64,000 bases of DNA from the NCBI RefSeq assembly GCF_006345805.1, contig NC_043001.1:97278001-97342000 (forward strand). The letters run 5' to 3'. The translations under genes and the position numbers were made by a program. Shown piece after piece: positions 11,469 to 64,000 of the stretch; the first letter of the stretch is position 1; each line of letters opens with the position of its first letter. Below the pieces are notes generated by a model that did not search any database, was not told where the DNA came from, and saw nothing but the letters and a program-made list of their open reading frames with translations. Origin of the DNA: Octopus sinensis (lineage: Eukaryota).

Positions 11469-13173
11469 CTCGGGCAAAATTTCAGAATTTTTAGCTACCA
11501 GTTACATGGCAGGAACATAGTGTAATCAGTAGGATGGAGCGAAAAATGCAACTTTCGACATTGGTAACCAAGAGTCGATATTTTGTTGCAAATTAGGTTT
11601 AAAAGAAAGGTGTATAAAGAGCTGTGTGGTTAAATAATTTTTCAGGTTCCGCAACGCAATTGAAAATTTTAGAAATCGCTTTTTTTCGATTTCATGGATT
11701 ATAAGTGGCAACGAAAATACATTTCTGCATAACAGAATGCAACAGTTTTCTGAGAAGATTGCGTACCAAATTTCAATGCAATTGACTAATATCTTGAGGT
11801 TCCGCATTGACTATAAATAGAACGGGAATGTGACGTCCTCCACTGCCGCTGCGACGGTCGTTGCTTGTGGTCGTACGTCGTACGTGTGTGGGGTTTTCTG
11901 CTTTGTACCTTGACTTTAGGCCATTGTGTTAAAATTAATGACCGTGTTAAATTTAGTGTAGTTTACATTTAGTGATGACTCATAAACCAATAACGCGTTA
12001 TGATATTGAATGCCCAACATTTGGTACAATATTTGTGATCTTTTGGCGATTTTTTGCCAACTTTACAACGACGTACTAAAATGTGTTTATTTGGAGGAGA
12101 AAAAGATAAGAATGTAGTTAAGAAAGATCCTTCCACTAAATAAATTTTCTAGATTGTAGCAGGAAAGATAATTCTTCTTTGGCAAAAGGCATCCACCCCT
12201 TGTGTTACGATTGAGTCAGTTAAACCGAACTTCTTCAAGTTTTATCTAAAGTACAAAGCATTACTAAAATCTGTTGAAACTAGAAAAATGTGCCTTCGTT
12301 TAAAACAAAGTGTAATGTATTTAAAAACAATGCGACAAAATAATTATTTGACATTACCTGTTGCAAGTGCAACTCCTTTCAAAGCTGCAGTTGTAGTAGA
12401 GACAAAGATGTACCACAGAGAGAACAAGATTTTTCACAGGATAAAAGGACAAATCGAATAATGATCATTGGCGCGTTAGATCAAGCAGTATCTAAATAGG
12501 GCGTTCAGAGATTGATTAGGAAGAATCGGTTAGATCATAGTCAACCTTTTACGCCAGGAAAGGATTCTGAATTGATAGCGTGTTTATCAAGTAGTGAATC
12601 AGGTAATGGATCATCAGGTGATGATGAAGTATTTCCAATTCCATTTTCCATGAAACGAAAATCCGTCAGCAAAAACGTAAATTAAAAACACCACTACAAC
12701 GAATGAGATTCCCAGAACTAGCTTGTGACTCTGACTGCACCAGCGGGTCAGACCGTGCTGCTACTCTTCTTACAAGTTCAGACATCGACGACTTAACGGC
12801 AAGAACATTTGTTGAATGTTCTTTCGTTATAGACAAATCGAAGGTAAGGCTGGAATGATCTAGAACACGTAAATCCCTGTAGCAGGAAAGTAGACCACAT
12901 AAGCCATTGTCTGTCGTGTATTTTGATGGAAGGAGGGACACAACCCTTAGAAGTGAACAAATGGGAAAGGCATTTCGTAAGGAAACAATTCAAGAGACGT
13001 AGTAGTTAAGAGCGCGGGTTACTAACACCAAGATTCCGAGTTCGATTCCAGGCAGTGACATGAATAATAATAATAATCATAATCATAATAATACTACTAA
13101 TAATAATAACGACAACAGCAACAACAACAACAACAATAGTAATAATGATAATAATAATAATAATAATAATAAT

Positions 13174-14187
13174 CTGGTCAAATATCTCGAAATATCGAAT
13201 GACTGGATGCTAAAGCTCGTGGAAAATCACGAGAGACGAAAGAAGCTTCATTCTATCATAAAGGAAAGCAAAAAAATTGCTATTGATCTCGTGCAGGATA
13301 CCCAAACTGAACAACCCGAGGGAAGTACGGCAACTATTGTTGCAAAGAAGGTGAAAATGATGGCAATGAAGAAAGCGCACGAGCAATTGGCTGATAGGTG
13401 GGAGGAGAAACCTCTGCACGGCAAATATGTGACCCGCAGCAAACAAGCTGATGTTGACCAGAAGCAAACCCAACAGTGGCTACGGAGCTCAGGGCTAAAA
13501 GCAGAGAGCGAAGGTTTCATCATGGCTGCTCAAGATCAAAGCCTATTAACCCGGAACTACCAGGCCAATGTGATGAAAAATGGAGCAGACCCAAAATGCC
13601 GATTCTGCAACGACATGATTGAAACAGTGGACCACCTAATCTCTGGATGTAAAGTCTTAGCACCAGTGGAGTATAAATTAAGACATGACAGAGTTGGCCA
13701 ATATCTCCACTGGCTAATAAGTCGGCATTACAATATCAAAACTGCCGACAAGTGGTATAATCACCACCCTGAGGCTGTAACTGAAGGAGAAAATGTAACC
13801 ATTCTGTGGGACTTTCCAGTACATACAGACCGAACCATCAAGGCCAATAAACCAGATATTGTTGTGAAAGACCAAAACAATAAAGTTTGCTTATTGATCG
13901 ACATGAGCATCCCCTGTGATCATAATATCTCAGCGAAAGAGTTTGACAAGCTCAGAAAATATAAAGACCTACTCATTGAAATTGAGAAAATGTGGCATCT
14001 CAAGGCGGTTACAATACCAGTGATCGTAGGAGCACTAGGAATGATCAAGAAGGGAACCGAAAATTATATGAGAATGATCCCTGGCTTACCATCCCTGCAA
14101 GAAGTGCAAAAGATTGTCTTAACTGGTACATCACACGATGAGAAGAGCATTGTCGATGTGAGAACTGTTGCTGCTCATGTATTTTAA
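13174..14187 (+). pseudogene. C-terminal third of an R4-clade polyprotein (CCHC knuckle + restriction-like endonuclease)
   Basis: KPLHGKY, AAQDQ, CRFC..ETVDHLISGC, RHD, KPDIVV..IDMSIP, K..KY, IPVIVGALG. The poly-Asn N-terminus of the listed ORF is just the microsatellite. Confidence 0.88.
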
Positions 14188-21299: not shown

Positions 21300-22715
21300 A
21301 CAAAGATAATTGGTGGGAACAAAACCCAACACAATTTCTCCAGAATGCGACGTAATCTATCTTGGAATTAAGGAGAATTTGTTTCTGCACATATGTTTAT
21401 CTGTCCACTCAGTGGGGTATCCATAATACTGGGGCCCCTTATTTGTGTTAGATGAATAATTAGTCTATTTATGAGAGTGAGTTTTGTTTATCTTGTGTAA
21501 TCCTCGTTATAGCCTTTATATTTTCTTTTCAGCTATATTACAGTTTTTTGACGGCGTTATCGAATACATTTTATGGTAAAATTTGTCTTGATTTAAATTC
21601 ATAATTTTTGTCTTCAGTGAGGTTAATTCAAGTCCCGCAGTTCAGTTGGCCACACTTTTTGACTGCTGATGTGGTGTGTGGTGGCAGTTAATTTAGAACT
21701 GGTGAGTGCCTTTTTGAAGTGTTTTGATTATCTTTTGCTTTTAATTATTTTGTCTATTTCGAATGTTTGTTTCATTCTTGGTTCTTATCTCAGAAGTAGA
21801 ATGCTTTCGTGGATAATGTTTTAAACCTGTGTGTTCTGGGGTTGTGTGCTGTGCCAAATGGTACAGTATTCGGTGTATCGGTGGTTTATTTTACTTTCCG
21901 TAATTCTAAAATGTCTATTGCTTTGCCACGCTCTATTTTATTGGATATTAATATTGACGGATATTTTCTTTCAAGCCGTATTTGTTTTCATTCTCTGAGA
22001 CATTGGTATTAAATTCCAACGTTGGAAAACATTTTTCACCTACTTCTTATTAGATTAAATGGCATATTGGTCTTCGTGTGTTTGGAATTGTATAAGAATA
22101 TCAGGTACTGATTAGTATCTGTTGTTTTATAATGAAGGTCTGTTGTAAAGTTTTTGTCTGTTTTCATGCTTAGAATGTCCAGGAATTGTTGTTGAGTTTT
22201 ACTGTATTCTATTGTGCAATTAACACTTGTTTATGCCGTGAATGAGGATTTCAAATAAATAAGCTGGTCAAATGTGTGCTTCCACAAAATCAGTCAGTCA
22301 TCTAAGTAACGTTTATAGTTTTCTAGTAAATATTTGTAGAATATCAAAACATATTTTAATTTAGATTGTACGTATACTTCAGCATTCATGTAAGTTTTGA
22401 CTGAAATGGGAAAAGTCGGAACGATTTTTCTAACCATCGCAGCCCTAGATATTTGTTGGTAAATTCTGAGATTAAAGTGGAAGATATTGTTTCCCAATAT
22501 GAATTTTAATACTTCGGAGATGAAACTACTTTCAGTTCTGTCTGAGACTTCACGAGGGAAATTTTCAAGCGGGAAACCTATTGTCACTAGTTCTTATTGA
22601 TTAAGGATTGTCGTATAAATGTTTACAACATCAAATGATACAATAATAGTATCTTTGTTGACTGTTTCAGAAGGGCAGTTGAATAGGTCCAGGCCGCTCC
22701 TCACTAGGAAGGCCT
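21300..22715 (-). pseudogene. Decayed Penelope-like element RT, thumb and degenerate GIY-YIG
   Basis: IIVSFDVVNIYTTI; FILGNNIFHFNLRIYQQISRAAM...KRYLDD; FLDI..TDLHYKTTDTNQYL..HTKTNMPFNL; downstream EDYTR*TKLTL.NRL..H..QI. Confidence 0.8.
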
Positions 22716-22827: not shown

Positions 22828-23180
22828 GTCAGTCAGTGGAAGGACTTCACTACCTCATATGTTCTTAAAATTTAAATCTACATCTTTGTCTGTATATCTA
22901 CCTTCTCTATAATGTTGCCACTTGATTTGAAAACTTTTGTATTAATGGAAAACCTCTATAATTGGCTGATGAGTACTCAGCATCTTAAATCTGTTGTAAT
23001 ACTTACAACATTTAATGGAATGATGTAGTACGAAACGATTGTATCAAATTACCGCAGTCATTCTTGTTGCTTATTTTGATTATAATCACCCCACAAATTT
23101 TTATGGATAACACCATACAAAATTCTGGTGCATCTAAATTAAGTACCATATTCATTCGAATCTAAATTTTTGCTAAACTT
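22828..23180 (+). mobile_element. PLE-type 3' terminal repeat and tail (relative of family C) next to (TA)n
   Basis: Contains an HHR; shares CATTCTTGTTGCTT..TTATAATCACCCCACA..GGTGCATCTAA..GTACCATATTCA with 60510-60608. Confidence 0.75.
22962..23047 (+). ncRNA. Type I hammerhead ribozyme motif (family C relative)
   Basis: ttgg-CTGATGA(22966)-gtact...agtac-GAAA-C-gatt-GTA-tcaa; long stem II. Confidence 0.75.
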
Positions 23181-35655: not shown

Positions 35656-38600
35656 TCACTGGAATACTTCTGTATATACGATGTTCCTAGCTGTCCGTTT
35701 GGGCGGAAACATGAAAACATCATTGCGCCTCCCAACGCGTGAACAGCCCACGTAGAGTTGACCGTGGGCGAAGCACTGTTCGCCCAAATGTAACCCAGCG
35801 ACTTGTAGCGTTTGGCCTTGGGATTTATTGATGGACATTGCGAAGCAGAGTTTAACAGGAAACTGAGAACGCCTTGAATTGGAGTAGGTCAGCGCCCGAC
35901 GGTTGAAGGTGCATCCGTGGAATGAAGACGTCCTCTCCCTTCCCACAACCGGTAAGTATTGTGGCCGTTATTAAATGTGGTGCCAAATGTTTCACAACCA
36001 AACGTGTGCCGTTGCACTGTTTAGGTGGAACCAAATTCCTGATGAGCATAATGGGCGCACCGACTTTTAACTTCAGGATGTGTGGTGGCAGGCCTGGCGG
36101 TTCAAGTGAATTCAGGAATTCAACAGGATAATCGGCAAGCTGGGCGGGGTCTGCTGTCCTATCTATAGATTTGTAGACGTGGACATCACCAGGAATAGCT
36201 TCAAGTAGCTGGATATTGATGGAGTTGACGGTTGTATTTTGGGGTGCGAGAATAGCTCTGCCTGCCAGCCATTTTAGGTCGCGTAAATTGTTTTGTAGGT
36301 CGTGGAAGACAGCGTCCGGAGGCTAGCAGGGGTGTCGACAATGGTGCAAAGTGAGTCCAATTGAACGTAGCCATCCGCATCAGACAGCATCCTATTTTCA
36401 CCGAGCGATAAGAGGTCCCTGGAGAATGCAGCGGATCCGCTGTCACCAATTAACTGCGCGCGCATGTTAGTTTGGAGGTGCAAGGGCCGCACATGTGCCC
36501 AAAGAGCTGACGACTTAAGGCACGCGCGCACGGCATCGGCACGGGTTCCTTTTGGAATAACAGGTAGAGTCTGCCTGAAGTCTCCTGAAAGAAGTAAAGT
36601 TAATCCTCCCATGGGGGCCGTAGAGTCTTGCAGGGACCTGTCCAGTGCCTCAAGGGCGCCTTTGTGTGCCATAGTGCACTCGTCCCATACGATGAGTTTG
36701 CATCTGCGCAGAATGTCGGCCTGTTCTGAGTTCTTGGCGATGTTGCAGATAGGTGACTCGGACTTTGCCAGATCGAGCGGGAGTCTGAAGGCAGAGTGGG
36801 CGGTTCTGCCACCCGGAAGCAACGTGGCCGCGATACCAGAGGAAGCTACAGCCAGGACAATGTCCGTGTTGCGTCTGACCTCTGCCAGAATTAGTTTAGT
36901 GACGAAGGTTTTGCCAGTGCCGCCGGGTGCATCAAGGAAGAAAATTCCCCCCACGTTGCTGTCTGACAGAGTTTACGATGGTGTTGTAGGCTATGCGCTG
37001 GTCTGGAAGCAGCCGTGGTTCATTATCTTGGACGTACTGGTGCAGTTCCTCAATGCAGTAGGAAGTTTCGCGTAACAATTCAGCAGACATAACATTGGCG
37101 TGTTCACGTGTGGGTGGTGGAAGGCCGTACTCTGTTAAAGCAGACCCACCCATATCGATGACAGCGTCTTCGAGTTGAATGAGCGCAAAATTGTAAATGA
37201 AGTTGGTGAACGTGATCTCGGCGGAAGGGCAGTGTTGCTGAGCCGTACGTAAGAAGTCGTGCGACATGTCATCCCTGTATTTCATCCAGAGACTTAGTGG
37301 ATCACTAAGCTGACATTTTTGAAGAAGGATTGCGAAAAGATGTCGTAGGGCCGAATGCGTTTGCAGTAAAGCACCCTCTGCCATCGTGGCGTCCCACTGG
37401 GAGTCATCCTCTAGAAGGCCAAGTCTCATACATGCTTCCCTGAAGGTGTCGCACAGAACCCCATTGACGGTACGTATATTGGCGAAACCTGTTGGACCAG
37501 TGACCTCATGTAGAAGGAGACGGAGGTAGAAGCATTCTTGCTGGTTTGGCGGGATGTTGTAAACTCGACCCAGGCAGGAGTCAAACTTGACGCCTGGGAA
37601 GCTTTCGACGTTTTTGCCGGATTTCCGTCGAACCCAGGTGTTTTTAGACCACACGAAGTACGATGGGACCTGTGGGTACAAAAGCGTTCGAGCGAAGTCA
37701 TCACGTTGGCATAATTTGAAGAAACCAGTCAACGTTGTGTCTTTAGGGCTGGTGGCTATCTGCACAGCACTTTGCTCTGTGAAGTAAATCTGCTGTCCAT
37801 TTTCCAAGTGTACAGCAAGCTGCACCACAGCCGGGTGTCTCTGATGGAGCGGGAAGCCGTAAATGCGCCAAAACGCTTCGTTGCTGCTGAGGTACCGGCC
37901 AGCCAAGTAGTTGGACACTTCGTCGCGACTGGTGGTCCTCTGGATGCTGAACATGGCAGCATCGCTGCCTTTGTTGATATATTTGCAGACATATTGTATT
38001 GACCTGATGGAGCTGCAGAACTCAACGTTGACGTGGGCTTTGAATATCTTCGACAGGAGAGGACAGTAGGGGACAATGTAGCTGTTGTCCACTTGATGTC
38101 GCCCAACCGTAATCGTGCGGCCTCCATTGGCTGGACTCCTTCGTTTGTACAGCGGATACCCATCGCCGCCTGTTTGAGTCTCCAAAGTGAACCGTTTAGG
38201 GAATCCCTTTGAGCAGGCTAATCCGTTTTTGTAGCATGGTGTGTTGGCGTAATTTGGTCCACAGGGCCCGTGTACCATGGTAGTGCGGACAATTTCGTAG
38301 AGTCCGGGGTCCTCATCGGGGTCAGGAATCTCGGCGGAAATGAATTTGTCAATGTCATTAGTCTCGATTTTATGAGTGAGCCAAATTAAGATGTGAGCAT
38401 GTGGCAAGCCCCTCTTTTGCCACTCGACCGAAAACATGTGGCACCTGACATGCCCGAAAATCTGACTCTTAACTATCAAATCCTTCATTTTGCCCAAATT
38501 CAGACGGAAAACCCTAGCAACGATGTCGTGTCGATGGGTGTGAGATTGACCCGGGAGGAGTTCGCGAGTGATTTCGTCGCAGCTGGGATTGCACGTGTAG

Positions 38601-40514
38601 GTGATAAAGAGGTCCGGCCGGCCGTAAATGCGCACGTAGGTCAAGGCGTCTTGGGTCCTTTCACGCATATATCGCGGTCCTCCCGTGAAGGTGGAGGGTA
38701 GAATGCATGGCTTGCCGATGTTGCGAGGGTCATTTTCTTGTTGCAAACCGTCACGGAGATGAATGTAGGAGTCGGAGCGAAGTTTGGTCTGATTAAGTTT
38801 AATGTATAGCAGCCTTTCCGATTCCATTTTTGCGGCCATATCGACGGCGAACTGGTTGAATAGCTGACGACAACGGGGCAATAAGTTGAACTCACCCTCC
38901 CTGACCATGAACCGGTATGAGTAGAACGCCCTGCAGGAAACCGTCTTTGATGCCGCAGTAGTTTGATTGGAGGGCTGCCGTAAAGGAATTCCGAAGTGGT
39001 AGCCGTCTTCCCCATAAGGGAAAAGCAATGGATAGTGAAGCGCGTCATAAGATCTGTGAGTCTCGCTGATCCTGTGTAGGTTGTTACCACGGGAGGAGAT
39101 GATTATGTCACGGCTGTTGTGTTGCTCTCCGTGTATAACTGCGGCAATTTCGTTGCACGCAGGTGCGTTGAAACGGCGTTCGTGCTCCCCGTGGGGTCGT
39201 TTATCAGCATCAATGACAACGGTGAAGTTTGGAGATGGAGCACTGTCCAAGGCATATCTGAAGCTGCAGACGTAGCTGTTGATATCATGAAGCATGTTTG
39301 GAGACGGAGAAGAATGTCTTTGCGGGGAACATAGCTTGTACCCGGTATTATTCCAAGGCGTGCATCAACCTGGTGGTTGTAGTCGGCAATGAAGTATATT
39401 TGGAGGAAAGAAGACTGCTGAATCTCGTCTGGCAGAAGTGACCCAATAAGATGGTAGACCTGTCCCTGCACTTTGAAAGTAGGCATCCAGCCTTCTCTGG
39501 GAGGAATTTTGGCCCCAAAAGAGGTCATTTGGAATGAGCAGTTGTACTTTCGAATTATTTCAAGGAATTGTGACGAATCGGGGGTTAAACCCGCCGCGAG
39601 ATCCTTCAGTGGTTGAGGTGGTTCCCGTAGGGGTGGCAGGTCCACTTTGCCACCAGAGCAGCACAAACCAGGTGGCTCTCCGGGCCATTTCTTGGCTTTG
39701 CAAAACTGGCATACAATTGTCATTGACCCTATCTTGATGTCGTCACGCAAGGAGAAGTTAATTGTGGCGTCGTAGTTGAATGCTAGTGACAACCAGAAAG
39801 CGGGGGCAGGGGTACGTACACCACGAATGATATCCCGACGTTTGTTGATACTCTCAAGTCGAGTGCACCGTGCCTCAGCAGATTCAGATGCACGTGCGAC
39901 AGCGGTAGCAGTGGCATCCTTGAAAGCCTTTCAGCTCTCGCCTCAGCACCCTCTGAAGCCCTAGCAGAAGCAGTGTTAATGGCATGTCTGGATGTCCGAA
40001 TAGTCCGTTGGTGTGGAGTTTCGGCAGATCGAGCCCTGGCTGTGTTTGCGGCGTTAGCAGCTTGGCGAGCTCTCCTCTGTTGAGGTGTTTCGGCAGCTTT
40101 GGCCATGGCTTTGTTTGCGGCGTCAGCATCTTGGCGAGTTCTCCTCTGCTGTGAGGTTTCGACAGATCGTGTCCTGGCAGTGCTAGTGGCGTTAGCCGCA
40201 TTCCGAATGGCCCTTTGTTCGGGGTTCTCGCGAGCTCTGCGGATGGAAGCACAGTAAGAAGCCCGCATGTTTTGGCTGGACTGTTGCTCTTTCGTCAACC
40301 TCGAGCGGAGGGAAGATCTGTACGCTGCGACCCTTGCAAGTCGGGTAGAACGGTCGCTAGTAGTTTCAGATGCCTGAGCAGCGGCATAACGGGAAGCTGT
40401 TTGCGAGAGGCGCAAGGCGGTTTCCTCGTGGGTCTCGCGTGCCCTTCTAGCCCTAGCAGCCGATGCCTTGGCCGTCCGAGGGCTGAGGAGGGTCCTTCTC
40501 TTCTTGGGTGGCAT
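35656..40514 (-). pseudogene. Helitron RepHel (HUH Rep + PIF1-like SF1 helicase), split by several frameshifts
   Basis: Start MPPKKRR (ATG 40514). Rep motifs PDLFITYTCNP, VEWQKRGLPHAHILI, YVCKYINKG. Helicase motifs DAPGGTGKT, IVWDEC, GDFRQTLPV, QFPVKLCFAMSINKSQGQTL, HGQLYVGCSRV. Spread over overlapping ORFs 39783-40670, 39103-39792, 36932-39295, 36274-36954, 35852-36049 and 35656-35946. Confidence 0.93.
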
Positions 40515-40634
40515 TTTGGTGGATAGCAATGTGTTTGGCAAAGGTGTAATAAAAAGGAACACGTGGGGTAAGTATTTTGGTGGATAGCAATGTGTTTGGT
40601 AAAGGTGTAATAAAAAGGAGCTCGTGGGGTAAGT
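40513..40634. repeat. 61-bp direct repeat x2 just upstream of the RepHel start
   Basis: ATTTTGGTGGATAGCAATGTGTTTGG.AAAGGTGTAATAAAAAGGA.C.CGTGGGGTAAGT at 40513 and 40574. Confidence 0.9.
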
Positions 40635-41849
40635 ATCCGAAAACGTATAAAAATGTACAAAAACGGCCAAAAGCTGGCAGCAATGTGAGTGACAACAACG
40701 AAAAAGTCAAAAGTGATCAAACTGAACAAACGAAAGGAAAAGTTTTTTGATGCACACGACAAAAGTGGTTTATAATAAACCAAGAGTTTGCAAGTAGCGT
40801 CCGAGGACCGTTAGGGTACGTCAAAAATTGAAGGTAAAACGTTTGGGGTGGTAGTTATAAAGAAAGTTTAAACCAAAAAAGTATTCGAATAACTTGCGGC
40901 TGCAGCAGCTATTAGCAGAAGTGGCGGTGTTGGGGGTAAAGTCTCGAATGTAATTTCTTCCTGGTAGGAATTGGTTGGATCGAATTATCGATAGCTAAAA
41001 AGGTCAAGTTGCGTCCCCTAGACACTCTGGTTTGTGTTTAATACACAAATTTGTTTGCTATGTGTGCCACATATGATTAAATTAACCGACTTTTTCCAAT
41101 AATGTATCCTATTGGAATAAAAAGGGCTATATAGCTCCTTGGAGCAGACATGATGCTCGTTGTGAAAAAAAAAAGATTCCTGCCAATTTGTGAAAGATAT
41201 TGTCGAAAATATGTCATCTTGAATTTGAACGCGATTTCCCAAAATGGCATGATTTTATCGATTGTTTCTGATGGTAAGGTATTGCATGGAAAACTAACGT
41301 CAGAATTGAGTTTCTTAGGGTAACATTAAGCTTCACCATGAGTTTGGTGAAAATCGATTGCAAGTTGTGAAAGCTACCATAGATAATGCGTTGCATAAAA
41401 AAAGCTTAGATTCTCGAGTTGCGTCCCCTAGCCAGTCTGTGGTTCATGTTTATGATTCTCGACCCCATGTCGAATTTATCAATTTTTTTTCAGAACTGGG
41501 GGAACTTTTCAAAATTTTCGCTGCGTTAGTTTTGAATTATGACATTGGGCTATGTGTGTGTCAAGTTTCATCAGAATCGGTTGAAAGCCGTGGTCAGAGT
41601 GAGGGTACGAGAAAACAGACACACAGAAGCACGCACAGACAAACTGCCGTTTATATATAGATATATATATATATATATATAAGTAAAAATTCATTATCTG
41701 ATTATCTATGAATTCGTCACCTTTTGCGTTCTCTCGTTTTGCATATATACATATACACATATATTTGGTATTTCAAACAGAAACTAATATAATTGATATA
41801 TTTTATATATTTAATATCTAGTTGTTTACCAAACAACTTTCACATTCAA

Positions 41850-43457: not shown

Positions 43458-43622
43458 CTATCCATCTATGTAAATCCACACGTATATATATATATACATT
43501 CAACAATATAAGGAATGGCCATATAGGACATTCGACTCACTAGAAAGAGCAGCCAAAACTCATACCGCTAAATAGTTGGAATTCTGAAATAGAAAGAGAA
43601 ATACAAACGTTTACCCCTTTCA

Positions 43623-43719
43623 TCTCTGGACTAAGCATAGTTTCGGCAAAACTTTGGCAAATGAATTAATTTTAATTAAATTAAATTCATTTACATCTGG
43701 CGTGCCTCGTCAGCAGAGA
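43623..43719 (-). ncRNA. Type I hammerhead ribozyme motif, family E unit 1
   Basis: Minus strand: tctctg-CTGACGA-ggca...tgcc-GAAA-cta-tgct-taGTC-cagaga; perfect 6-bp stem I, 4-bp stem III, long AU-rich stem II. Confidence 0.88.
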
Positions 43720-44093
43720 GCCTAGGACGAGTATATGTCCACGAGGCTATGGTAAAGAAGCCTCCAGTCACATATGCTCTAAATTTTCAAATCTTACCGC
43801 AATCGCGCGATCTACTCAGCAGCAAATATAAACCGCTGATTTAATTTCAAAATTAGCCAAAAAATCATTAATTAATAAATATAAGGGTAGCAAAAAATTC
43901 TAGAAAAAATTTTCCTCTACCAGCGGTCTAGTGAGAAAGGGAAAATAGTCAAAGACTATATAATATACATTCAACAATATAAGGAATGGCCATATAGGAT
44001 ATTCGACTCACTAGAAAAAGCAGCCAAAACTCATACCGATAAATAGTTGTAATTCTGAAATAGAAAGAGAAATAAAAACGTTTACCCATTTCA

Positions 44094-44184
44094 TCTCTGG
44101 ACTATGCATATTTTCGGCAAAACTTTGGCAAATGAATTAATTAAATTAAATTCATTTACATATGGCGTGCCTCGTCAGCAGAGA
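44094..44184 (-). ncRNA. Type I hammerhead ribozyme motif, family E unit 2
   Basis: Same as unit 1 but GAAA-A-tatgcata-GTC (C>A mismatch at the base of stem III). Confidence 0.75.
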
Positions 44185-44513
44185 GCCTAGGACGAGTATA
44201 TGTCCACGAGGCTATGGTAAAGAAGCCTCCAGTCACATATGCTCTAAATTTTCAAATCTTACCGCAATCGCGCGGTCTACTCAGCAGCAAATATAAACCG
44301 CTGATTTAATTTCAAAATTAGCCAAAAAATCATTAATTAATAAATATAAGGGTAGCAAAAATTTCTAGAAAAAATTTTCCGCTACCAGCGGTCTAGTGAG
44401 AAAGTAAATTAGTCAAAGACTATATAATATACATTCAACAATATATATGTTATGTTTTGACGATTTCCGTTTATTGTGTGTTTTTTTTTTACCTTATATG
44501 TATGTATATATAT

Positions 44514-46608
44514 ATATAAGAATGAATGTTTTTATATATAATGAACGTGAAATACAGGAAGGGACGAACACGGAACACAGACAAATCATTCGAAGCCTTC
44601 AATCTTCAGTCAGACACCGAATCATCATAGCAAATTTCGGCTGTTCAATTCTGATATTTGCTCCAACTCGGCCAGCCCCAAGAAAAAAAACTAAGCTGTA
44701 AGCATTAGATTTCTTGGTAGAAGACAGGAATGTGAACGCACAAGACGGATGTGAATACAAGAGACGAAAACGAAATTGAAAACAGTAATGAATAAACAGA
44801 ACATATATAACGGTGGTTGTCATACGACTTTAGACCAAATGAGACAAAAACACAACAACATAGCTGGCGTAGAAATAATTACCGTTTCGGTAGCGGGGAC
44901 ACATGTTGGTCGAGATACGAAGGCCAACAGAATGGTTTAAGAAGCAGCAGGTCGCAGGAGAGAGAGAAAGAGAGACAGAGAGAGAGGGAATCAAAGAGGG
45001 TGGAAGGCAGGGGACAGAATCAGTGACCAAGAGAAAAGGAAAAAGAAGGGATTAAGGAGGATGGGAGGAAGAGGGGAGGAGGATGGGAGGAAGAGAGGGG
45101 AAGAATCGGAGGGCGCCAAAAAGTTTGGTGAAGAAGCAATGGCGGGTAGTAAAAGACAGTGTGTATAGAAGTCGTGCAGGGTTTAAAAATTGGACAAACA
45201 AACGGGGGGGTGCACGTAACGCCGCAATAATATAAGAATGAATGTTTTTATATATAATGAACGTGAAATACAGGAAGGGACGAACACGGAACACAGACAA
45301 ATCATTCGAAGCCTTCAATCTTCAGTCAGACACCGAATCATCATAGCAAATTTCGGCTGTTCAATTCTGATATTTGCTCCAACTCGGCCAGCCCCAAGAA
45401 AAAAAACTAAGCTGTAAGCATTAGATTTCTTGGTAGAAGACAGGAATGTGAACGCACAAGACGGATGTGAATACAAGAGACGAAAACGAAATTGAAAACA
45501 GTAATGAATAAACAGAACATATATAACGGTGGTTGTCATACGACTTTAGACCAAATGAGACAAAAACACAACAACAACATAGCTGGCGTAGAAATAATTA
45601 CCGTTTCGGTAGCGGGGACACATGTTGGTCGAGATACGAAGGCCAACAGAATGGTTTAAGAAGCAGCAGGTCGCAGGAGAGAGAGAGAAAGAGAGACAGA
45701 GAGAGAGGGAATCAAAGAGGTGGAAGGCAGGGGACAGAATCAGTGACCAAGAGAAAAGGAAAAAGAAGGGATTAAGGAGGATGGGAGGAAGAGGGAGGAG
45801 GATGGGAGGAAGAGGGGAGGAGGATGGGAGGAAGAGAGGGGAAGAATCGGAGGGCGCCAAAAAGTTTGGTGAAGAAGCAATGGCGGGTAGTAAAAGACAG
45901 TGTGTATAGAAGTCGTGCAGGGTTTAAAAATTGGACAAACAAACGGGGGGGTGCACGTAACGCCGCAATAATATAAGAATGAATGTTTTTATATATAATG
46001 AACGTGAAATACAGGAAGGGACGAACACGGAACACAGACAAATCATTCGAAGCCTTCAATCTTCAGTCAGACACCGAATCATCATAGCAAATTCGGCTGT
46101 TCAATTCTGATATTTGCCCAACTCGGCCAGCCCCAAGAAAAAAAACTAAGCTGTAAGCATTAGATTTCTTGGTAGAAGACAGGAATGTGAACGCACAAGA
46201 CGGATGTGAATACAAGAGACGAAAACGAAATTGAAAACAGTAATGAATAAACAGAACATATATAACGGTGGTTGTCATACGACTTTAGACCAAATGAGAC
46301 AAAAACACAACAACAACATAGCTGGCGTAGAAATAATTACCGTTTCGGTAGCGGGGACACATGTTGGTCGAGATACGAAGGCCAACAGAATGGTTTAAGA
46401 AGCAGCAGGTCGCAGGAGAGAGAGAAAGAGAGACAGAGAGAGAGGGAATCAAAGAGGGTGGAAGGCAGGGGACAGAATCAGTGACCAAGAGAAAAGGAAA
46501 AAGAAGGGATTAAGGAGGATGGGAGGAAGAGGGGAGGAGGATGGGAGGAAGAGAGGGGAAGAATCGGAGGGCGCCAAAAAGTTTGGTGAAGAAGCAATGG
46601 CGGGTAGT
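44514..46608. repeat. Family F tandem repeat, ~2.9 units of 716-741 bp, flanked by (TA)n
   Basis: AATGAATGTTTTTAT at 44521, 45237 and 45978; length variation lies mainly in a GGAGGATGGGAGGAAGAGG purine subrepeat. Confidence 0.92.
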
Positions 46609-47631
46609 ATATATATATATATATATATACATACGGGAATATGCAAGCGCTTACACGCGTGTGCAAACCTATGGCATACTATCCACGGATAGAGAACGTA
46701 CGCGCGTGTGCGCGGATATGCAAATGTAAGTGTTTACTGTTGAGTAATATAACATCATTTTACCTCCGACTGCTATGTTATATTCCTCTAATGACTAGTA
46801 ACATTACCCCCCATCTCCCCCTTTTTATTTCGCTCCCCGCTTTCCTTCCTAGAAAATCCACCTTATTCCCACTACTAAATATGTAACCCCTTCTCTTCCT
46901 TTTGTATTCATTCCTAACAATTTCACTTCTAAAAATTCTAGCTTTTTCTTTTATTTTCTTTTGCTACTGTATAAGTGCATGTACTTGGGTGCGACAGTAT
47001 ATATATTTACCGTTGATAAAGTAAAATGACCCCAGCTTAACATCAACAACGACCTTCCCTCAGTCAACATCAGTTTGACCTAAAATACCCTTTCTCCCTC
47101 TCTCTCCTTTTCTTTATTCTTAACAGCTTCAGAAAATTGCCCTCATCTATAATGTTGATCTTCTTTTCTATTAGCGACCATTTTCTATTACCGAACCCTC
47201 GCGAATGGGAAAGTATAGAATTCCCTCCCTGCATAAGTGTCTCGTCAAGCGACGGACTGAGAGTTATCTCTCTAAATGGAATCTGTTTAGTTCGGGTGTA
47301 GTGTAGCATGTTCTTAGTGTCCGTAGATGAAGGCTGGGTAGGAATCTGCACCAAGGGATGCACCACAACTAGTTGTATAGCTTCCCACCCGCGAAGTATC
47401 GATGCAAGCTGTATCGAAACGATCGTAATGAGCAATATAGTTTCCCGTGCATTCAATGTCTGTCTCTATCGTTTGTTATTATACCAAACGGACACTGAAG
47501 ATTCCTGTGTTAGATCCAGTGATATTTGTTTAATTATCATGAATGCCGTCAGGTAGCCATAGATAGTGAACATGCTCTGTCGGTGTACTACTAGGGACAT
47601 ATACAACACTTAAATATTAGCCTTATATATA

Positions 47632-54797: not shown

Positions 54798-57008
54798 TTA
54801 GAGCTGGAAACAGTTGTCGAAACAAAGCGTGCAGCTCTGATGTAATACAAGAGTGATTCTTCTATAGAATCACTCAAAGAATTCAGAAAGGCAAGAAATA
54901 AAACCCAACTGACTGCCAGACGCTGTGCAAATAGTATCCAGTCAACTGCTGACAGTCGCGACACCTGTGGGACGTATGCAGGTTTGAAGAAGGCCCTTGG
55001 TCCATCCGCAACCAAGTCAGCCCCTCTGAAATCAACTACTGGGGATCTCATCAAGGACCAAAGCAAGCAAATGGATAGATGGGTGGGATACTACCAGGTT
55101 CTCTACTCACGAAAGACCATGGTAGCTGAGGCTGCAATCGAGGGTGTCAGGATCTTGCCAGTCATGTGTGAACTTGACAGTCTGCCATCTATAGCAGAGC
55201 TCACCAAGGCTATTGACTTCCTAGCAAGTAACAAGGCTCCGGGAAAAGACGGCATCCCCTTAGAGATCATCAAAACTGGCAAAAACACCATCCTGCTTCG
55301 GCACATTTATGAGCTTCTGTGTCAGTGCTCGGAATAGGGTATAGTCCCTCAGGATATACGGGATGCTAACATCATTACGCTTTACAAAAACAAAGTTGAC
55401 CGTGGTGATTGTAACAATTACCGTAGAATATCTCTTCTAAGCACTGTTGGAAAGGCTTCTGCTCGCATTATTCTGTCCAGGCTGTAAGTGCTTGCTTCTC
55501 GAATTTATCTAGAATCGCAGTGTGGCGTTAGAAGCAGCAGATCAAGTATTGACATGATATTCACCTTACGCCAATTTCAGGAGAAGTCCAGTGAGCAGAA
55601 AATGCCATTATATATGGCCTTCATTGCTCTGACAAAGGCCTTTGAATTGGAAAGTAGAAAAGGACTCTTCATCCTGCTCCAAAACATCGGATGTCCATCA
55701 AAGCTGCTGAGGATCATTACATCTTTCCATGATGATATGCAAGGCACCATACAGCACAATGGTTCAACATCAGCGGCCTTCCAAATAAAAAATGGGGTAA
55801 AGCAAGGTTGTGTCCTTGCTCCTACATTATTTGGCATCTTCTTCTCGCTGCTGCTGTCACATGCCTTTGTGACATCAGATGATGGAGTGTTTCTGCACAG
55901 TAGAAGTGATGGGAAACTGTTCAATCTCTCGCGTTTGCGTGCCAAGACCAAAATCAGAAGCGACCTGATCTAGGAGATGCAATTTGCTGATGATGCCACT
56001 CTGGTATCACACACAGAAGAAGCCCTACAAAGGCTCATCAACTGTTTTGAGCAAGCATGTGGCAACTTTGGCTTATTTATCAGCCTCAAGAAGACCAACA
56101 TTATGGGTCAGGCTACATTTACCTTCCCAAACATACATATTGGAGACCACAGACTACAGGAGGTGGAGAAGTTTACCTATCTTGGCTCGACCGTCACCTG
56201 CAACATATCCCTTGCTACTGAGCTCAATATACGCTTTGGCAAGGCAGCTTCTGGGATGGCCCAACTCTCCAAACGGGAATGGGACAACAATAAGCTGACC
56301 AATACCACAAATTGAAGATTTACCAGGCATGTGTACTTAGCACTCTACTGTATGGAAGTGAGACTTGGACGCCATACACGCGCCATACGACCCCATACGT
56401 CGCCTAAATATCTTTCACCTGCGCTGCTTCCGGAAAATCCTTCGCATCAAATGGCAGAACCATGTCCCCAACAAAGATGTCCTCAAGCAAGCAGGAATAT
56501 CAAGCATGTTTACACTCCTCACACAAAGACGTATGAGATAGCTTCGACGTGTTAGCCGTATGGAAGATGGCAGAATCCCCAAGGACATACTCAACGGAGA
56601 GCTTGCTGGGGGCACTAGGTCTGTGGGAAGACCGTTCTTACGATACAACAAGGATGTTTGCAAAATTGACATGAATGCCTGCAACATCAATATTACCAAC
56701 TGGAAAGCAGTTGCCAGCAACCGTGGAGATTGGCGACATACCGTAAAAGAGGTAACACAAAGGAGTGACATAGAAGGAGATGAGAAATGGAAAGACAAGA
56801 AAAGACGTAAACAAGAAAGTATGACCTTACAACCAGCCAGGCAAAGTCTTCGCTACATGTGCAGCACCTGCCAGAGAGAGTGTTTGTCCAGGATAGGACT
56901 ACACAGCTACAGCAGGAGATATATTAGGACATGGAATGTAAAAGCCGGACTAGATTATTTTATGCGCAACTCCGTTGTCTTCCGAGACAAAAAGGATGCC
57001 AACAACAA
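54796..57008 (+). mobile_element. 5'-truncated RTE-clade LINE, decayed
   Basis: RT motifs KAPGKDGIP, ESQCG.R..RSSIDMIF, GVKQGCVLAPTLF, QFADD, FTYLGS, MEDGRIPK, and C-terminal CSTC..CLSRIGLHS; (CAA)n tail; several stops and frameshifts. Confidence 0.92.
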
Positions 57009-57014
57009 TATATA

Positions 57015-57202
57015 TGGATTTCGTAGACAGGAACTGAAACAGATCAATCGTATATATATATATGTATATATGTAAGTGTATGTGTGTGTCTTTGTGTCTG
57101 TGTTTCGCCCTCATCACTGCTTCATAACTACTGTTCATTTATTTACACCCACAAAACTTACTGGTTTCACAAGAACAAACTAATAGAATAAGTACTAGGC
57201 TT
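57015..57202 (+). mobile_element. SINE family S1, middle/3' remnant
   Basis: GGATTTCGTAGACAGGAACTGAAA..TG-rich tract..ATAGAATAAGTACTAGGCTT. Confidence 0.7.
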
Positions 57203-61403: not shown

Positions 61404-62621
61404 TAATAATAATAATAATAATAATAAAAAATATAATAAAAAATAGATACAGTTAATTAGCACCAAGTCCATCCTTACAGATCGAAATAACTATGAGTTA
61501 AGAAATGCTGACCACTAGGTAAAGAAAATATAGATTAATTCGATTGGCTATTGGTTTGAAATTTAAATCACAAAAGAAATTATACGGTTGGTTAGTCAGG
61601 GAACGCCAATATTCACACACGCATCTACAGATCAATCGCACATACACACATAGTAAATATGTATATGCTACAATACACATACATAATTACAAGCACAACT
61701 AGCACATAGATAAACAAAAAGGGAAGCAACTATGCTACAATTTAGTCCTTCAAATTATAATTGTGCCTCAATAATAAAAGAAGAACCATCCATGCATTCC
61801 ATAAAATATTTAATTTAGATATAAATATATTTTAAATATCAGTATATTACTAAGTCAGATACTTTACATGGGTAACTTAAAATTTATAACACCGGTTGTT
61901 GCAGAGTAAACATACGGTTGTTAGATTTATCGTAAGTTTTGTTATGGTTTTAAGTACGCTAAATATAAAAAAATATAAAATATAAAATATATTAATTAAA
62001 TTATTATAATAAGTAACTTATAACTTAATAAATATAGTGCCATAATATACCAGTTTAGGCATTAAAGAATAGAAGGGGAAGTATTAATGTAAACGCTTAT
62101 GAGAACATCATAGAAATTTTAAATAAATTTTATATTATAAAGACTTAAGATGAAAAGAGATAAAATAAATAAGAAGGAATAAAATACGAAGGAATAAATA
62201 CGGTTATACACATAATTTAAGTACAAAAACCAGTATATATGTATTCATATATTATTAAAATTAAATAAAAATAAATGATAGATATGTATGTATAAAACTA
62301 CCCCAGTATAAGTAAATAAGTAAAAATAAATAGGTAGCAAATTAGATGACTTGATATGTATGTAAACATCTACACTTAAATAGGCAAATAAATAAATAAA
62401 TAGAAGACTAGATGCAAAAATTGATAATATTACAATAAAATGGAAAATAAATAAAAAATAATAAATAGAGTGAATATATATGTATATTGTTGAAAGTAAA
62501 TATGTATGGAAGGATAGTTTAAAGTACAGATCCAGAGTATAGATATAAACTAATATATGAGGCTGGTAATAATTATAAAGCATAATGCATGTAAATGAGA
62601 AAATGAAAAAAATGAAAAAGG

Positions 62622-64000
62622 TTTATCATTAGTCAGAGAATTTCTAGTTTATCCTCAAACGAGGAAATTTTTAACAAACACTGTGACAGATACAATGCAG
62701 CATTGCTTAAGGCAGGATATAAAAGTAAGATTTGGTTTATACCTAAGGGGAACCCCCCTAAATGTAGTAGAACTATCAGGAACAACACAAATAGATTTAG
62801 GATAATCAACAATATACATAAGAATTGTAAAAATGGAATATATGATAACACCTATAATAAATGTAGAAGTGATGTTAACCTTGGAAAGGTGAACGGTAGC
62901 TCAAATAGATCTAAACATACGGGTAATAGTAGGAATATTAATAATAATATACGAATTAAAACTTATGGCAGACATGATAATGGTAAAGTTTACTTGCGCA
63001 ATAACCATGGTAATATTGATATAGATAAATATAACAATGACAGTGGTAAGAATAGTAATCCTATGAGTTGGTCTACGAATAGGATTTTTACAAATAACAT
63101 TAATTCTATAGGCAATCCTAATTCTGATAAGGATACTCTTTGGTGATTATCCATATGCAATGCAGATTAAAACAACATAGTGAGAGCTTTGCATAATGTT
63201 ATTTTTAGGCATTTTGGTAAGGATAAGAATAAATTTAGTCCTTAATTAACAACGGTACTGTTAGAGTGGGATATAGCATTACTCATAATCTAGCCACCAT
63301 TATCTCCTCTTTTAATAACAAGAAACTGGATCACTTCTATAAGGATAAATTGAATTTAGACCAGGAAAACTTGCCCCTCTTCATTAATAATAGAATAGAA
63401 ACTTTCTTGGAACAAATGGGAACAACCTCCTTACTAATAATGAGTGCACCATACCTGTCAGAGATATATAAATGAAATAGATCATACTACTACTACCAAT
63501 ACTAGTACTAGTGATAAGAATATAGCCGATAATGGGAAATTAACTCATTCGTTGTTTTGGGTTTGGATGATGATAACAATTGTAACACTTATAATGTGAA
63601 TAGTAGTATAGGGTGTTTGTCCAATTTCAGATTTCCTCATTCTGTTAATCTTTGTAATTTCAGAAATAAAAATAAATGTGTATTTGGTAATCAATGCCTC
63701 AGGAAGAGGTAGTTTACCAATGCACTGTAGATACACAATTGAGTAGTAGGTGTATATCGGGGCAACTATGAATAGCATAAAACAAAGATGGAATTATCAC
63801 AGATATACTTTTAGGAATAAAAATAGAATGTACTCTACAGGCTAAGTGCATACATTTGGGAGCTTAAAAATAAGAACTTAGATTTTAGATTAAACTGGAA
63901 AATACTAACTTCAGCACCTGTGTATAATGGAAAAAATAAAAAATGCTCTCTATGTATTAATGAAATTTTCTTCATTATTAAAGCGGGTCGGAAAATTATT
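62622..64000 (+). pseudogene. PLE polyprotein C-terminal part: thumb end, Asn-rich linkers, GIY-YIG endonuclease (Naiad-like), frameshifted
   Basis: Hand translation: ISQRISSLSSNEEIF..YNAALLKAGY; TVRVGYSITHNLATIISSFNNKKL; CNFR..CVFGNQCL..VVYQC..VYIGAT..KQRWNYHRYTF..LSAYIWELK..WKIL..CSLCINE. The clade assignment is from memory of motifs. Confidence 0.82.

Follow-up and report, generated by a model that had tools for sequence, protein, structure and literature searches.

A 954-base insertion on the minus strand of Octopus sinensis contig NC_043001.1 (positions 43492-44445 of the window, i.e. of the 64,000-nucleotide stretch of DNA analyzed here) is likely best filed as a new non-LTR retrozyme. 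It belongs to a dispersed hammerhead family, and we hold it moderately probable that the members of this family arise when the reverse transcriptase-endonuclease of a Penelope-like element copies their RNA into (TA)n microsatellites, the template being a monomer of about 470 nt ligated into a circle. A first-pass annotation had described two head-to-tail units plus about 19 nt and no ORF, and this description was borne out by TRF (43485-44445, period 465, 2.1 copies, 95% matches), by the unit boundaries given below and by the ORF listing, in which no ORF of at least 120 aa overlapped the tandem. The cleavage-to-cleavage length of 471 nt was likewise recovered, with predicted cuts after 44100 and 43629.

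43492-43962, minus strand: unit 1, 471 nt.
43963-44426, minus strand: unit 2, 464 nt.
44427-44445, minus strand: 19-nt remnant, read as the start of a third round at the 5'-truncated end of the cDNA.
43492-44445, minus strand: whole insertion, with its RNA-sense 3' end at 43492, merging into (TA)n, and its 5' end at 44445.
43629-44099, minus strand: predicted cut-to-cut monomer, 471 nt, 34% GC.

Apart from the TA repeats, no target-site duplication was discernible at 43492-44445. Of 452 sites compared between the two units, 14 differ, while two to three rare alleles are common to both, as would be expected if one template had been copied twice and the product had then aged. Alleles private to the locus include those at 43634, 43916 and 44111. 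The GC content of 34%, the lack of an ORF and the lack of a tRNA gene form our basis for regarding the element as non-coding, low in GC and devoid of LTR retrotransposon anatomy. A tRNA/Pol III origin was considered and rejected: the box A- and box B-like words of the plus strand pair with each other, and ARAGORN found no tRNA at the locus.

The 2.72-Gb genome contains many relatives of this insertion. A 16-nt core was present in 662 exact copies (control, 1), a second 20-mer, located downstream of the ribozyme, gave 584 matches, and the unit used as a query returned 2,321 candidates, 40 of which were scored. All 70 sampled core loci (from the first 100 listed: the first 30 and 40 more on contigs C1-C3) belong to the family, matching the unit at about 65-98%. 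Sister families are about 50-70% identical; their common tail motif matched 2,586 times (control, 0), and one of them, with a CCATGG stem III, 624 times (control, 2). Sister copies that are long enough return to their ribozyme after about 430-480 nt. The proposal of a retrozyme family is thus supported: the repeat is dispersed, non-coding and AT-rich, its type I hammerhead is conserved, its copies number in the hundreds, and none of the loci examined held a coding version. Two ribozymes in one run were seen in only 2 of 76 family loci, a rarity that makes the locus studied here a possible source copy. Intact dimers of the family occur, for instance, in L305 and L125. A literature search gave no description of this hammerhead family, which Repbase or Dfam may nevertheless catalogue.

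The insertion contains two candidate ribozymes.

43624-43718, minus strand: type I hammerhead of unit 1, predicted to cut between 43629 and 43628.
44095-44183, minus strand: type I hammerhead of unit 2, predicted to cut between 44100 and 44099.

In unit 1, stem I pairs CUCUG (43718-43714) with CAGAG (43628-43624), the core comprises CUGACGA (43713-43707), GAAA (43644-43641) and a GUC cut after 43629, stem II (GGCA/UGCC) encloses a 54-nt AU-rich insert, and stem III reads CUA-UGCU-UAG (43640-43631). The core words of unit 2 lie at 44178-44172 (CUGACGA) and 44115-44112 (GAAA), while an A instead of C at position 15.2 (44111) produces a private A15.2·G16.2 mismatch beside the core, found in 1 of 93 aligned ribozymes. 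Relative to the minimum-energy fold, the hammerhead costs about 8 kcal/mol in unit 2 and about 3 kcal/mol in unit 1. The earlier claim of a well-formed type I hammerhead in each unit therefore stands for unit 1 but not for unit 2, with its A·G mismatch next to the core. Since the defective ribozyme is the upstream one, the locus may not release a monomer unless a double-hammerhead fold rescues it. Such a fold is conceivable between GAAAC of unit 1 and GUC of unit 2, the duplex being worth -9.5 kcal/mol, compared with -17.3 kcal/mol for the common palindrome; a circle derived from the locus would, on this model, carry the intact stem III of unit 1. Rfam missed the hammerhead both at the gathering threshold and at E values up to 5, returning only chance snoRNA and miRNA matches, probably because of the long stem II insert.

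Variant cores are kept across whole subfamilies of sister families (e.g. L174, L210, L225 and L232). An A·A at the first position of stem II occurs in 22 of 93 rows, mostly from sister families, and CCGA replaces CUGA in 16 of 93. A GGTAAA motif (window 43609-43615 and 44080-44086, minus strand) follows the cut site by 9-18 nt and recurs in all sister families seen; its role could be that of a splice donor, of a protein site or of a tertiary contact. It resembles a splice donor, yet no skip joint that would point to an intron was found in contigs from sequencing runs of uncertain type.

Folding gave z-scores of -5.6 for the minus-strand monomer, -2.9 for the plus strand and -4.6 for the minus-strand circle, the last of these being a check that the first-pass annotation had suggested; taken together with the 662 cores against one in the control, the two minus-strand values argue against chance. 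Covariation was assessed in 16 full-length natural copies with a 78-pair structure derived largely from RNAalifold, the hammerhead stems being set by hand. In this set, 94% of cells were paired (slid controls, 37-44%) and 23 of 78 pairs changed on both sides, which none of 500 shuffles reached, both figures being inflated in that the sequences are related and the structure was derived from the same sequences. Covariation extends to each of the three hammerhead stems and to several long-range helices, and where only one side of a pair has changed, G·U pairing on the minus strand mostly accommodates the change. Two structures noticed previously are among the covarying helices.

43729-43779, minus strand: hairpin of two nested stems upstream of the ribozyme (helices 7 and 8, both covarying).
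43927-43935 with 44007-44015, minus strand: long-range helix CTCACTAGA/TCTAGTGAG (helix 2, covarying, with G·U wobbles).

The nested stem is thus real as proposed, and so is the CTCACTAGA/TCTAGTGAG pairing, except that, within the predicted monomer, TCTAGTGAG pairs with the unit-2 copy at 44007-44015 and not with the one at 43536 that had been suggested. A further helix (CCGCU/AGCGG, CCACU/AGUGG) covaries by eye. Together, the helices close a domain enclosing two fixed RNA 3' ends that are described below.

In an alignment of 93 motif-anchored ribozymes, 449 of 465 cells of stem I and 324 of 372 cells of stem II were paired, with several pair types. The commonest stem III was CTATGCATAG, present in 65 of 93 ribozymes, a count that is partly circular because the loci were chosen by a core pattern; it is also the palindrome to which the two stem III variants of the locus had been reconciled. 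Across the alignment, stem III alternates among the palindromes CTATGCATAG, CGATGCATCG, CCATGG and CCAATTGG. That it stays palindromic suggests that cleavage would probably proceed as a double hammerhead, and the alternation fits the dimeric hammerhead described for animal repeats in the accessible part of PMC4209133.

The anatomy of the insertions was examined in two samples: 76 loci, i.e. all insertions among the first 100 of the 584 20-mer matches, and a core-based sample of 70 loci with 110 pieces, which overlaps the former in part. Of the pieces examined, 84 of 95 motif-bearing ones (76 loci) and 92 of 110 (core-based sample) start at one of two fixed RNA 3' sites.

43492-43500, and internally at about 43963, minus strand: site 1, a fixed RNA 3' end at which 51 of 95 and 57 of 110 pieces start.
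43865-43880 (about 43871), minus strand: site 2, a fixed RNA 3' end at which 33 of 95 and 35 of 110 pieces start.
43871-43962, minus strand: "tail" of about 92 nt between the sites, with a TAGTC/GACTA hairpin and the TAGACCGCTGG motif common to all sister families.

We infer that reverse transcription starts at site 1 and that site 2 is a second start used in other copies. An inverted arm was present at 38 of the 76 loci, with the two sites on opposite arms in 33 of these 38, and 28 of 70 loci were inverted in the core-based sample. TA repeats flank 64 of 110 pieces under a strict rule, and insertions of the family show 5' truncation and partial tandems. The circularly permuted array ends that had been predicted were found only in part: the 5' ends do vary, but the RNA 3' ends are fixed at the two sites. 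Fixed 3' ends combined with variable 5' ends point to Penelope-type priming. In Penelope-like elements, the tail is the stretch between two internal initiation sites (PMC11167929), and the pattern set out in the available portion of PMC8557442 comprises 5' truncation, an inverted arm, a one-sided tail and microsatellite targets. The anatomy of the insertions thus gives good support to mobilisation of the family by Penelope-type machinery.

These observations led us to propose the following cycle. The minus strand would be transcribed and the RNA cleaved, probably as a double hammerhead, so that a monomer of about 470 nt is released from the rare two-ribozyme copies and ligated into a circle that serves as the template. 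The reverse transcriptase-endonuclease of an autonomous Penelope-like element would copy this RNA into (TA)n microsatellites, priming internally at site 1 or site 2 inside the structured domain, with an inverted arm resulting if both are used, and copying could go round the unit for any length. The insertion at 43492-44445 would then be a cDNA begun at site 1 and extended for two rounds and 19 nt. Of 69 pieces with an identity of at least 83%, 33 continued across the cut site and 10 were longer than one unit, while none in this subset passed a second cut; the read-through and the pieces exceeding one unit favor a circle or seamless end-to-end copying. The longest pieces in the 76 loci measured 870 and 994 nt, and the 954-nt copy of the window is among the longest. 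Within 30 nt around the cut site, 5' ends were found in 14 of 47 pieces at risk, about twice the neighboring rate and with no sharp pile-up, which is a weak hint of cleaved templates. Contigs assembled from the four sequencing runs of uncertain type contained diverged family pieces on parts of the unit, none of them spanning it; two joints go back 470 and 472, fitting a tandem and a circle equally, and two contigs of 471 and 477 nt match the unit in part only.

The main competing explanation keeps the same Penelope-mobilised family and replaces the template with linear, uncut multimers from a few tandem master loci, the ribozyme trimming 5' ends or acting late and no circle being formed. We regard it as rather unlikely, though it accounts for the data on read-through and long copies as well and draws on several observations: in the one Penelope system studied in vitro, that of the anole Poseidon protein, RNA did not have to be cleaved and was used mainly in its uncut form (PMC11167929), a result that counts against the proposed cycle, as does the cleavage in vitro of only one of nine predicted Xenopus retrozyme dimers reported in the accessible text of bioRxiv 10.64898/2026.07.22.740005. 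Moreover, read-through of the cut site by half of the pieces is equally possible with uncut RNA, L304 and L305 hold arrays of 2.5-3 units, and 5' ends show a weak excess near the cut site. On the other hand, copies made from linear RNA with 5' truncation can only become shorter, yet sister families 50-70% identical keep multi-unit copies, which a circle, or seamless jumping between monomers, would regenerate. The longest array seen, furthermore, has about three units, a figure that collapse of long arrays in the assembly may have lowered, and circles were shown for coral, mussel and axolotl retrozymes, for which the part of PMC7229834 available proposes Penelope-like elements as drivers.

Penelope-type mobilisation raises the question of whether the unit could be a pLTR, the terminal repeat of some coding Penelope-like element, with the copies representing 3' fragments of that element, solo or in tandem. 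The insertions do bear all the marks of a Penelope 3' end; type I hammerheads with a palindromic stem III are typical of pLTRs according to the accessible part of PMC4209133, and Xenopus retrozymes are homologous to pLTRs in the available text of bioRxiv 10.64898/2026.07.22.740005. Coding elements with reverse transcriptase and GIY-YIG domains are abundant in the genome (147 matches among 150 scored of 5,029 candidates in a GIY-YIG search), some having unbroken, intact-looking ORFs of 775-781 aa, and they likewise sit in (TA)n. Clade labels such as Neptune-type are assigned to them provisionally, from domain order and known motifs. The search for a coding form covered about 220 locus records at about 170 distinct places, a sample out of several thousand, and in none of 70 core, 30 sister-family, 30 tail-motif and 30 CCATGG-core loci did the unit continue into a shared ORF. 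Copies extending past site 2 instead reach the ribozyme again within about 240 nt, and the terminal repeats of the coding families examined (Neptune-type elements and their relatives, and a second large family) matched neither the unit nor the superfamily profile. As no coding version was found at the roughly 170 places, the unit is probably not simply a solo terminal repeat; the origin from a coding Penelope-like element that the first-pass annotation had named as one of its counter-cases is not borne out, no Penelope ORF being framed by the unit at these places, and we consider it improbable, though a rare coding form may exist. ORFs near L005, L106 and L147 were inspected as a coding form and rejected, microsatellite or unrelated sequence intervening. 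A window rich in microsatellites and other tandems might also suggest a duplication unique to this locus, the other counter-case of the first-pass annotation, or a satellite or an assembly artefact, in which something like a hammerhead arose by chance; the probability of this is negligible in view of the hundreds of dispersed copies on many contigs (662 cores against one in the control), the covarying stems and the 3% difference between the units, which excludes a read-level duplication.

In three sister-family insertions (L121, L231 and L325), none of them from the subfamily of the window, site 1 or site 2 directly abuts a Neptune-type element at its 5' end, with no TA spacer in between. At L121 and L231, the far side holds no upstream part of the coding element, as would be expected if the polymerase had jumped from its own RNA to retrozyme RNA. 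Among 40 further Neptune-type loci, however, none had a family member joined at its 5' end, and both types of element favor AT-rich sites, so the three junctions could reflect shared targets. The driver is most likely a Neptune-type element, although no homology to the terminal repeat of any coding element was found. A 63% match upstream of the L121 coding element was rejected as a partner, being a separate sister retrozyme. The search also brought to light a young Neptune-type family with many near-identical copies (L115:174-3874 and L121), which has an extra ORF of about 479 aa upstream of its 781-aa reverse transcriptase/GIY-YIG ORF. At L142, a different family takes part in a complex chimera; L142:1283-2500 and L118 contain a third non-coding hammerhead repeat, with core GAAACATATGTC, joined in a chimera to a truncated coding element and a copy of the family.

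The family shares several properties with the metazoan non-LTR retrozymes of Cervera and de la Pena (2020), as far as the accessible text of PMC7229834 describes them: (i) a non-coding unit with GC below 45% and a type I hammerhead, (ii) genomic copies in the thousands, alongside autonomous Penelope-like elements, and (iii) a palindromic stem III that suits dimeric cleavage, as in the axolotl family. It differs from them in its unit of about 470 nt (170-400 nt there), in its stem II insert of 35-60 nt and in its copies, most of which are dispersed and shorter than one unit, whereas long arrays are reported there. The same text proposes Penelope mobilisation; two fixed initiation sites and inverted arms, on which it is silent, are features of the family described here. 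Li, Clavereau and Pollet treat non-LTR retrozymes as non-autonomous Penelope derivatives with units of 51-972 bp in the available part of bioRxiv 10.64898/2026.07.22.740005, a range within which 471 nt does not stand out as relatively long, contrary to the initial impression. With two consecutive hammerhead units, the insertion agrees in outline with their definition of an "active" retrozyme, and their scheme permits a high proportion of monomers. Their Penelope link rests on co-occurrence and pLTR homology, ours on insertion anatomy and three junctions; unlike their retrozymes, the octopus family yielded no homologous coding pLTR. Endonuclease-positive Penelope-like elements, as presented in the accessible parts of PMC11167929 (anole Poseidon) and PMC8557442 (Neptune, Naiad, Hydra), resemble the family in having two initiation sites, a one-sided tail, 5' truncation, an inverted 5' arm, partial tandems, microsatellite targeting and a hammerhead upstream of the tail. 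Their tail is 30-40 bp long, whereas that of the octopus family is about 92 bp and accompanied by no ORF, and their ribozyme has the minimal form, as opposed to the complete stem III and elongated stem II found here. The 3' ends of non-autonomous Chlamys elements such as MRC1 are similar to those of their autonomous counterparts, while no such counterpart was found here, and most Chlamys lack hammerheads, unlike the octopus family (PMC8557442, available part).

Several other repeats lie in the window. A second, unrelated tandem (44514-46609) starts 70 nt from the retrozyme and consists of about 2.9 copies of a non-coding unit of 716-741 nt. Its family is dispersed and very young (40 of 40 scored matches 98-100% identical; 1,590 candidates); one end is fixed, at 44514, and multi-unit arrays occur at other places. 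Its minus strand contains a hammerhead-like GCCGAAA...CUGAAGA, a word also found beside Hydra-like Penelope ORFs, and no standard hammerhead fold was confirmed in this tandem. Lying upstream of the retrozyme on the same strand, it could be a source of read-through transcription. Six more type I hammerhead candidates with a CGATTG or CAATTG stem III are located at 22966 (plus), 26963 (minus), 31151 (minus), 35048 (plus), 58726 (minus) and 60419 (plus); the last two constitute a pair of inverted terminal repeats, downstream of which lie remnants of a Penelope-like reverse transcriptase and endonuclease (62616-63985). A broken Neptune-type reverse transcriptase/GIY-YIG remnant occupies 21365-22707 (minus strand). 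ORFs at 35852-40706 (minus strand), one of 810 aa, have the look of what we take to be a Helitron Rep/helicase, and 13006-14187 and 54846-57075 are presumably fragments of non-LTR retrotransposon ORFs.

Animal retrozymes were already known, and their dependence on Penelope had been proposed from co-occurrence and sequence similarity. To this, the octopus family adds mechanistic footprints, namely two fixed priming sites, a one-sided tail, inverted arms and Neptune-type junctions, as well as a covariation-supported fold, and it makes two questions testable: what role the hammerhead plays in the Penelope cycle and whether the template is a circle. It also represents a ribozyme family of several thousand copies overlooked by Rfam models. 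A broader interpretation, which we advance only tentatively, is that an old, diversified superfamily has recorded, in thousands of insertions, Penelope two-site priming on a ribozyme-made circle. In that case, the conserved multi-helix domain just downstream of the hammerhead may be a landing pad for the Neptune reverse transcriptase, kept without homology to the ends of the driver, and the two-ribozyme loci may be the sole renewing sources. If true, this would amount to evidence, at the level of genomes, for the circle-to-genome step that has been proposed for animal retrozymes, and it would supply a compact template on which that step could be tested in vitro.
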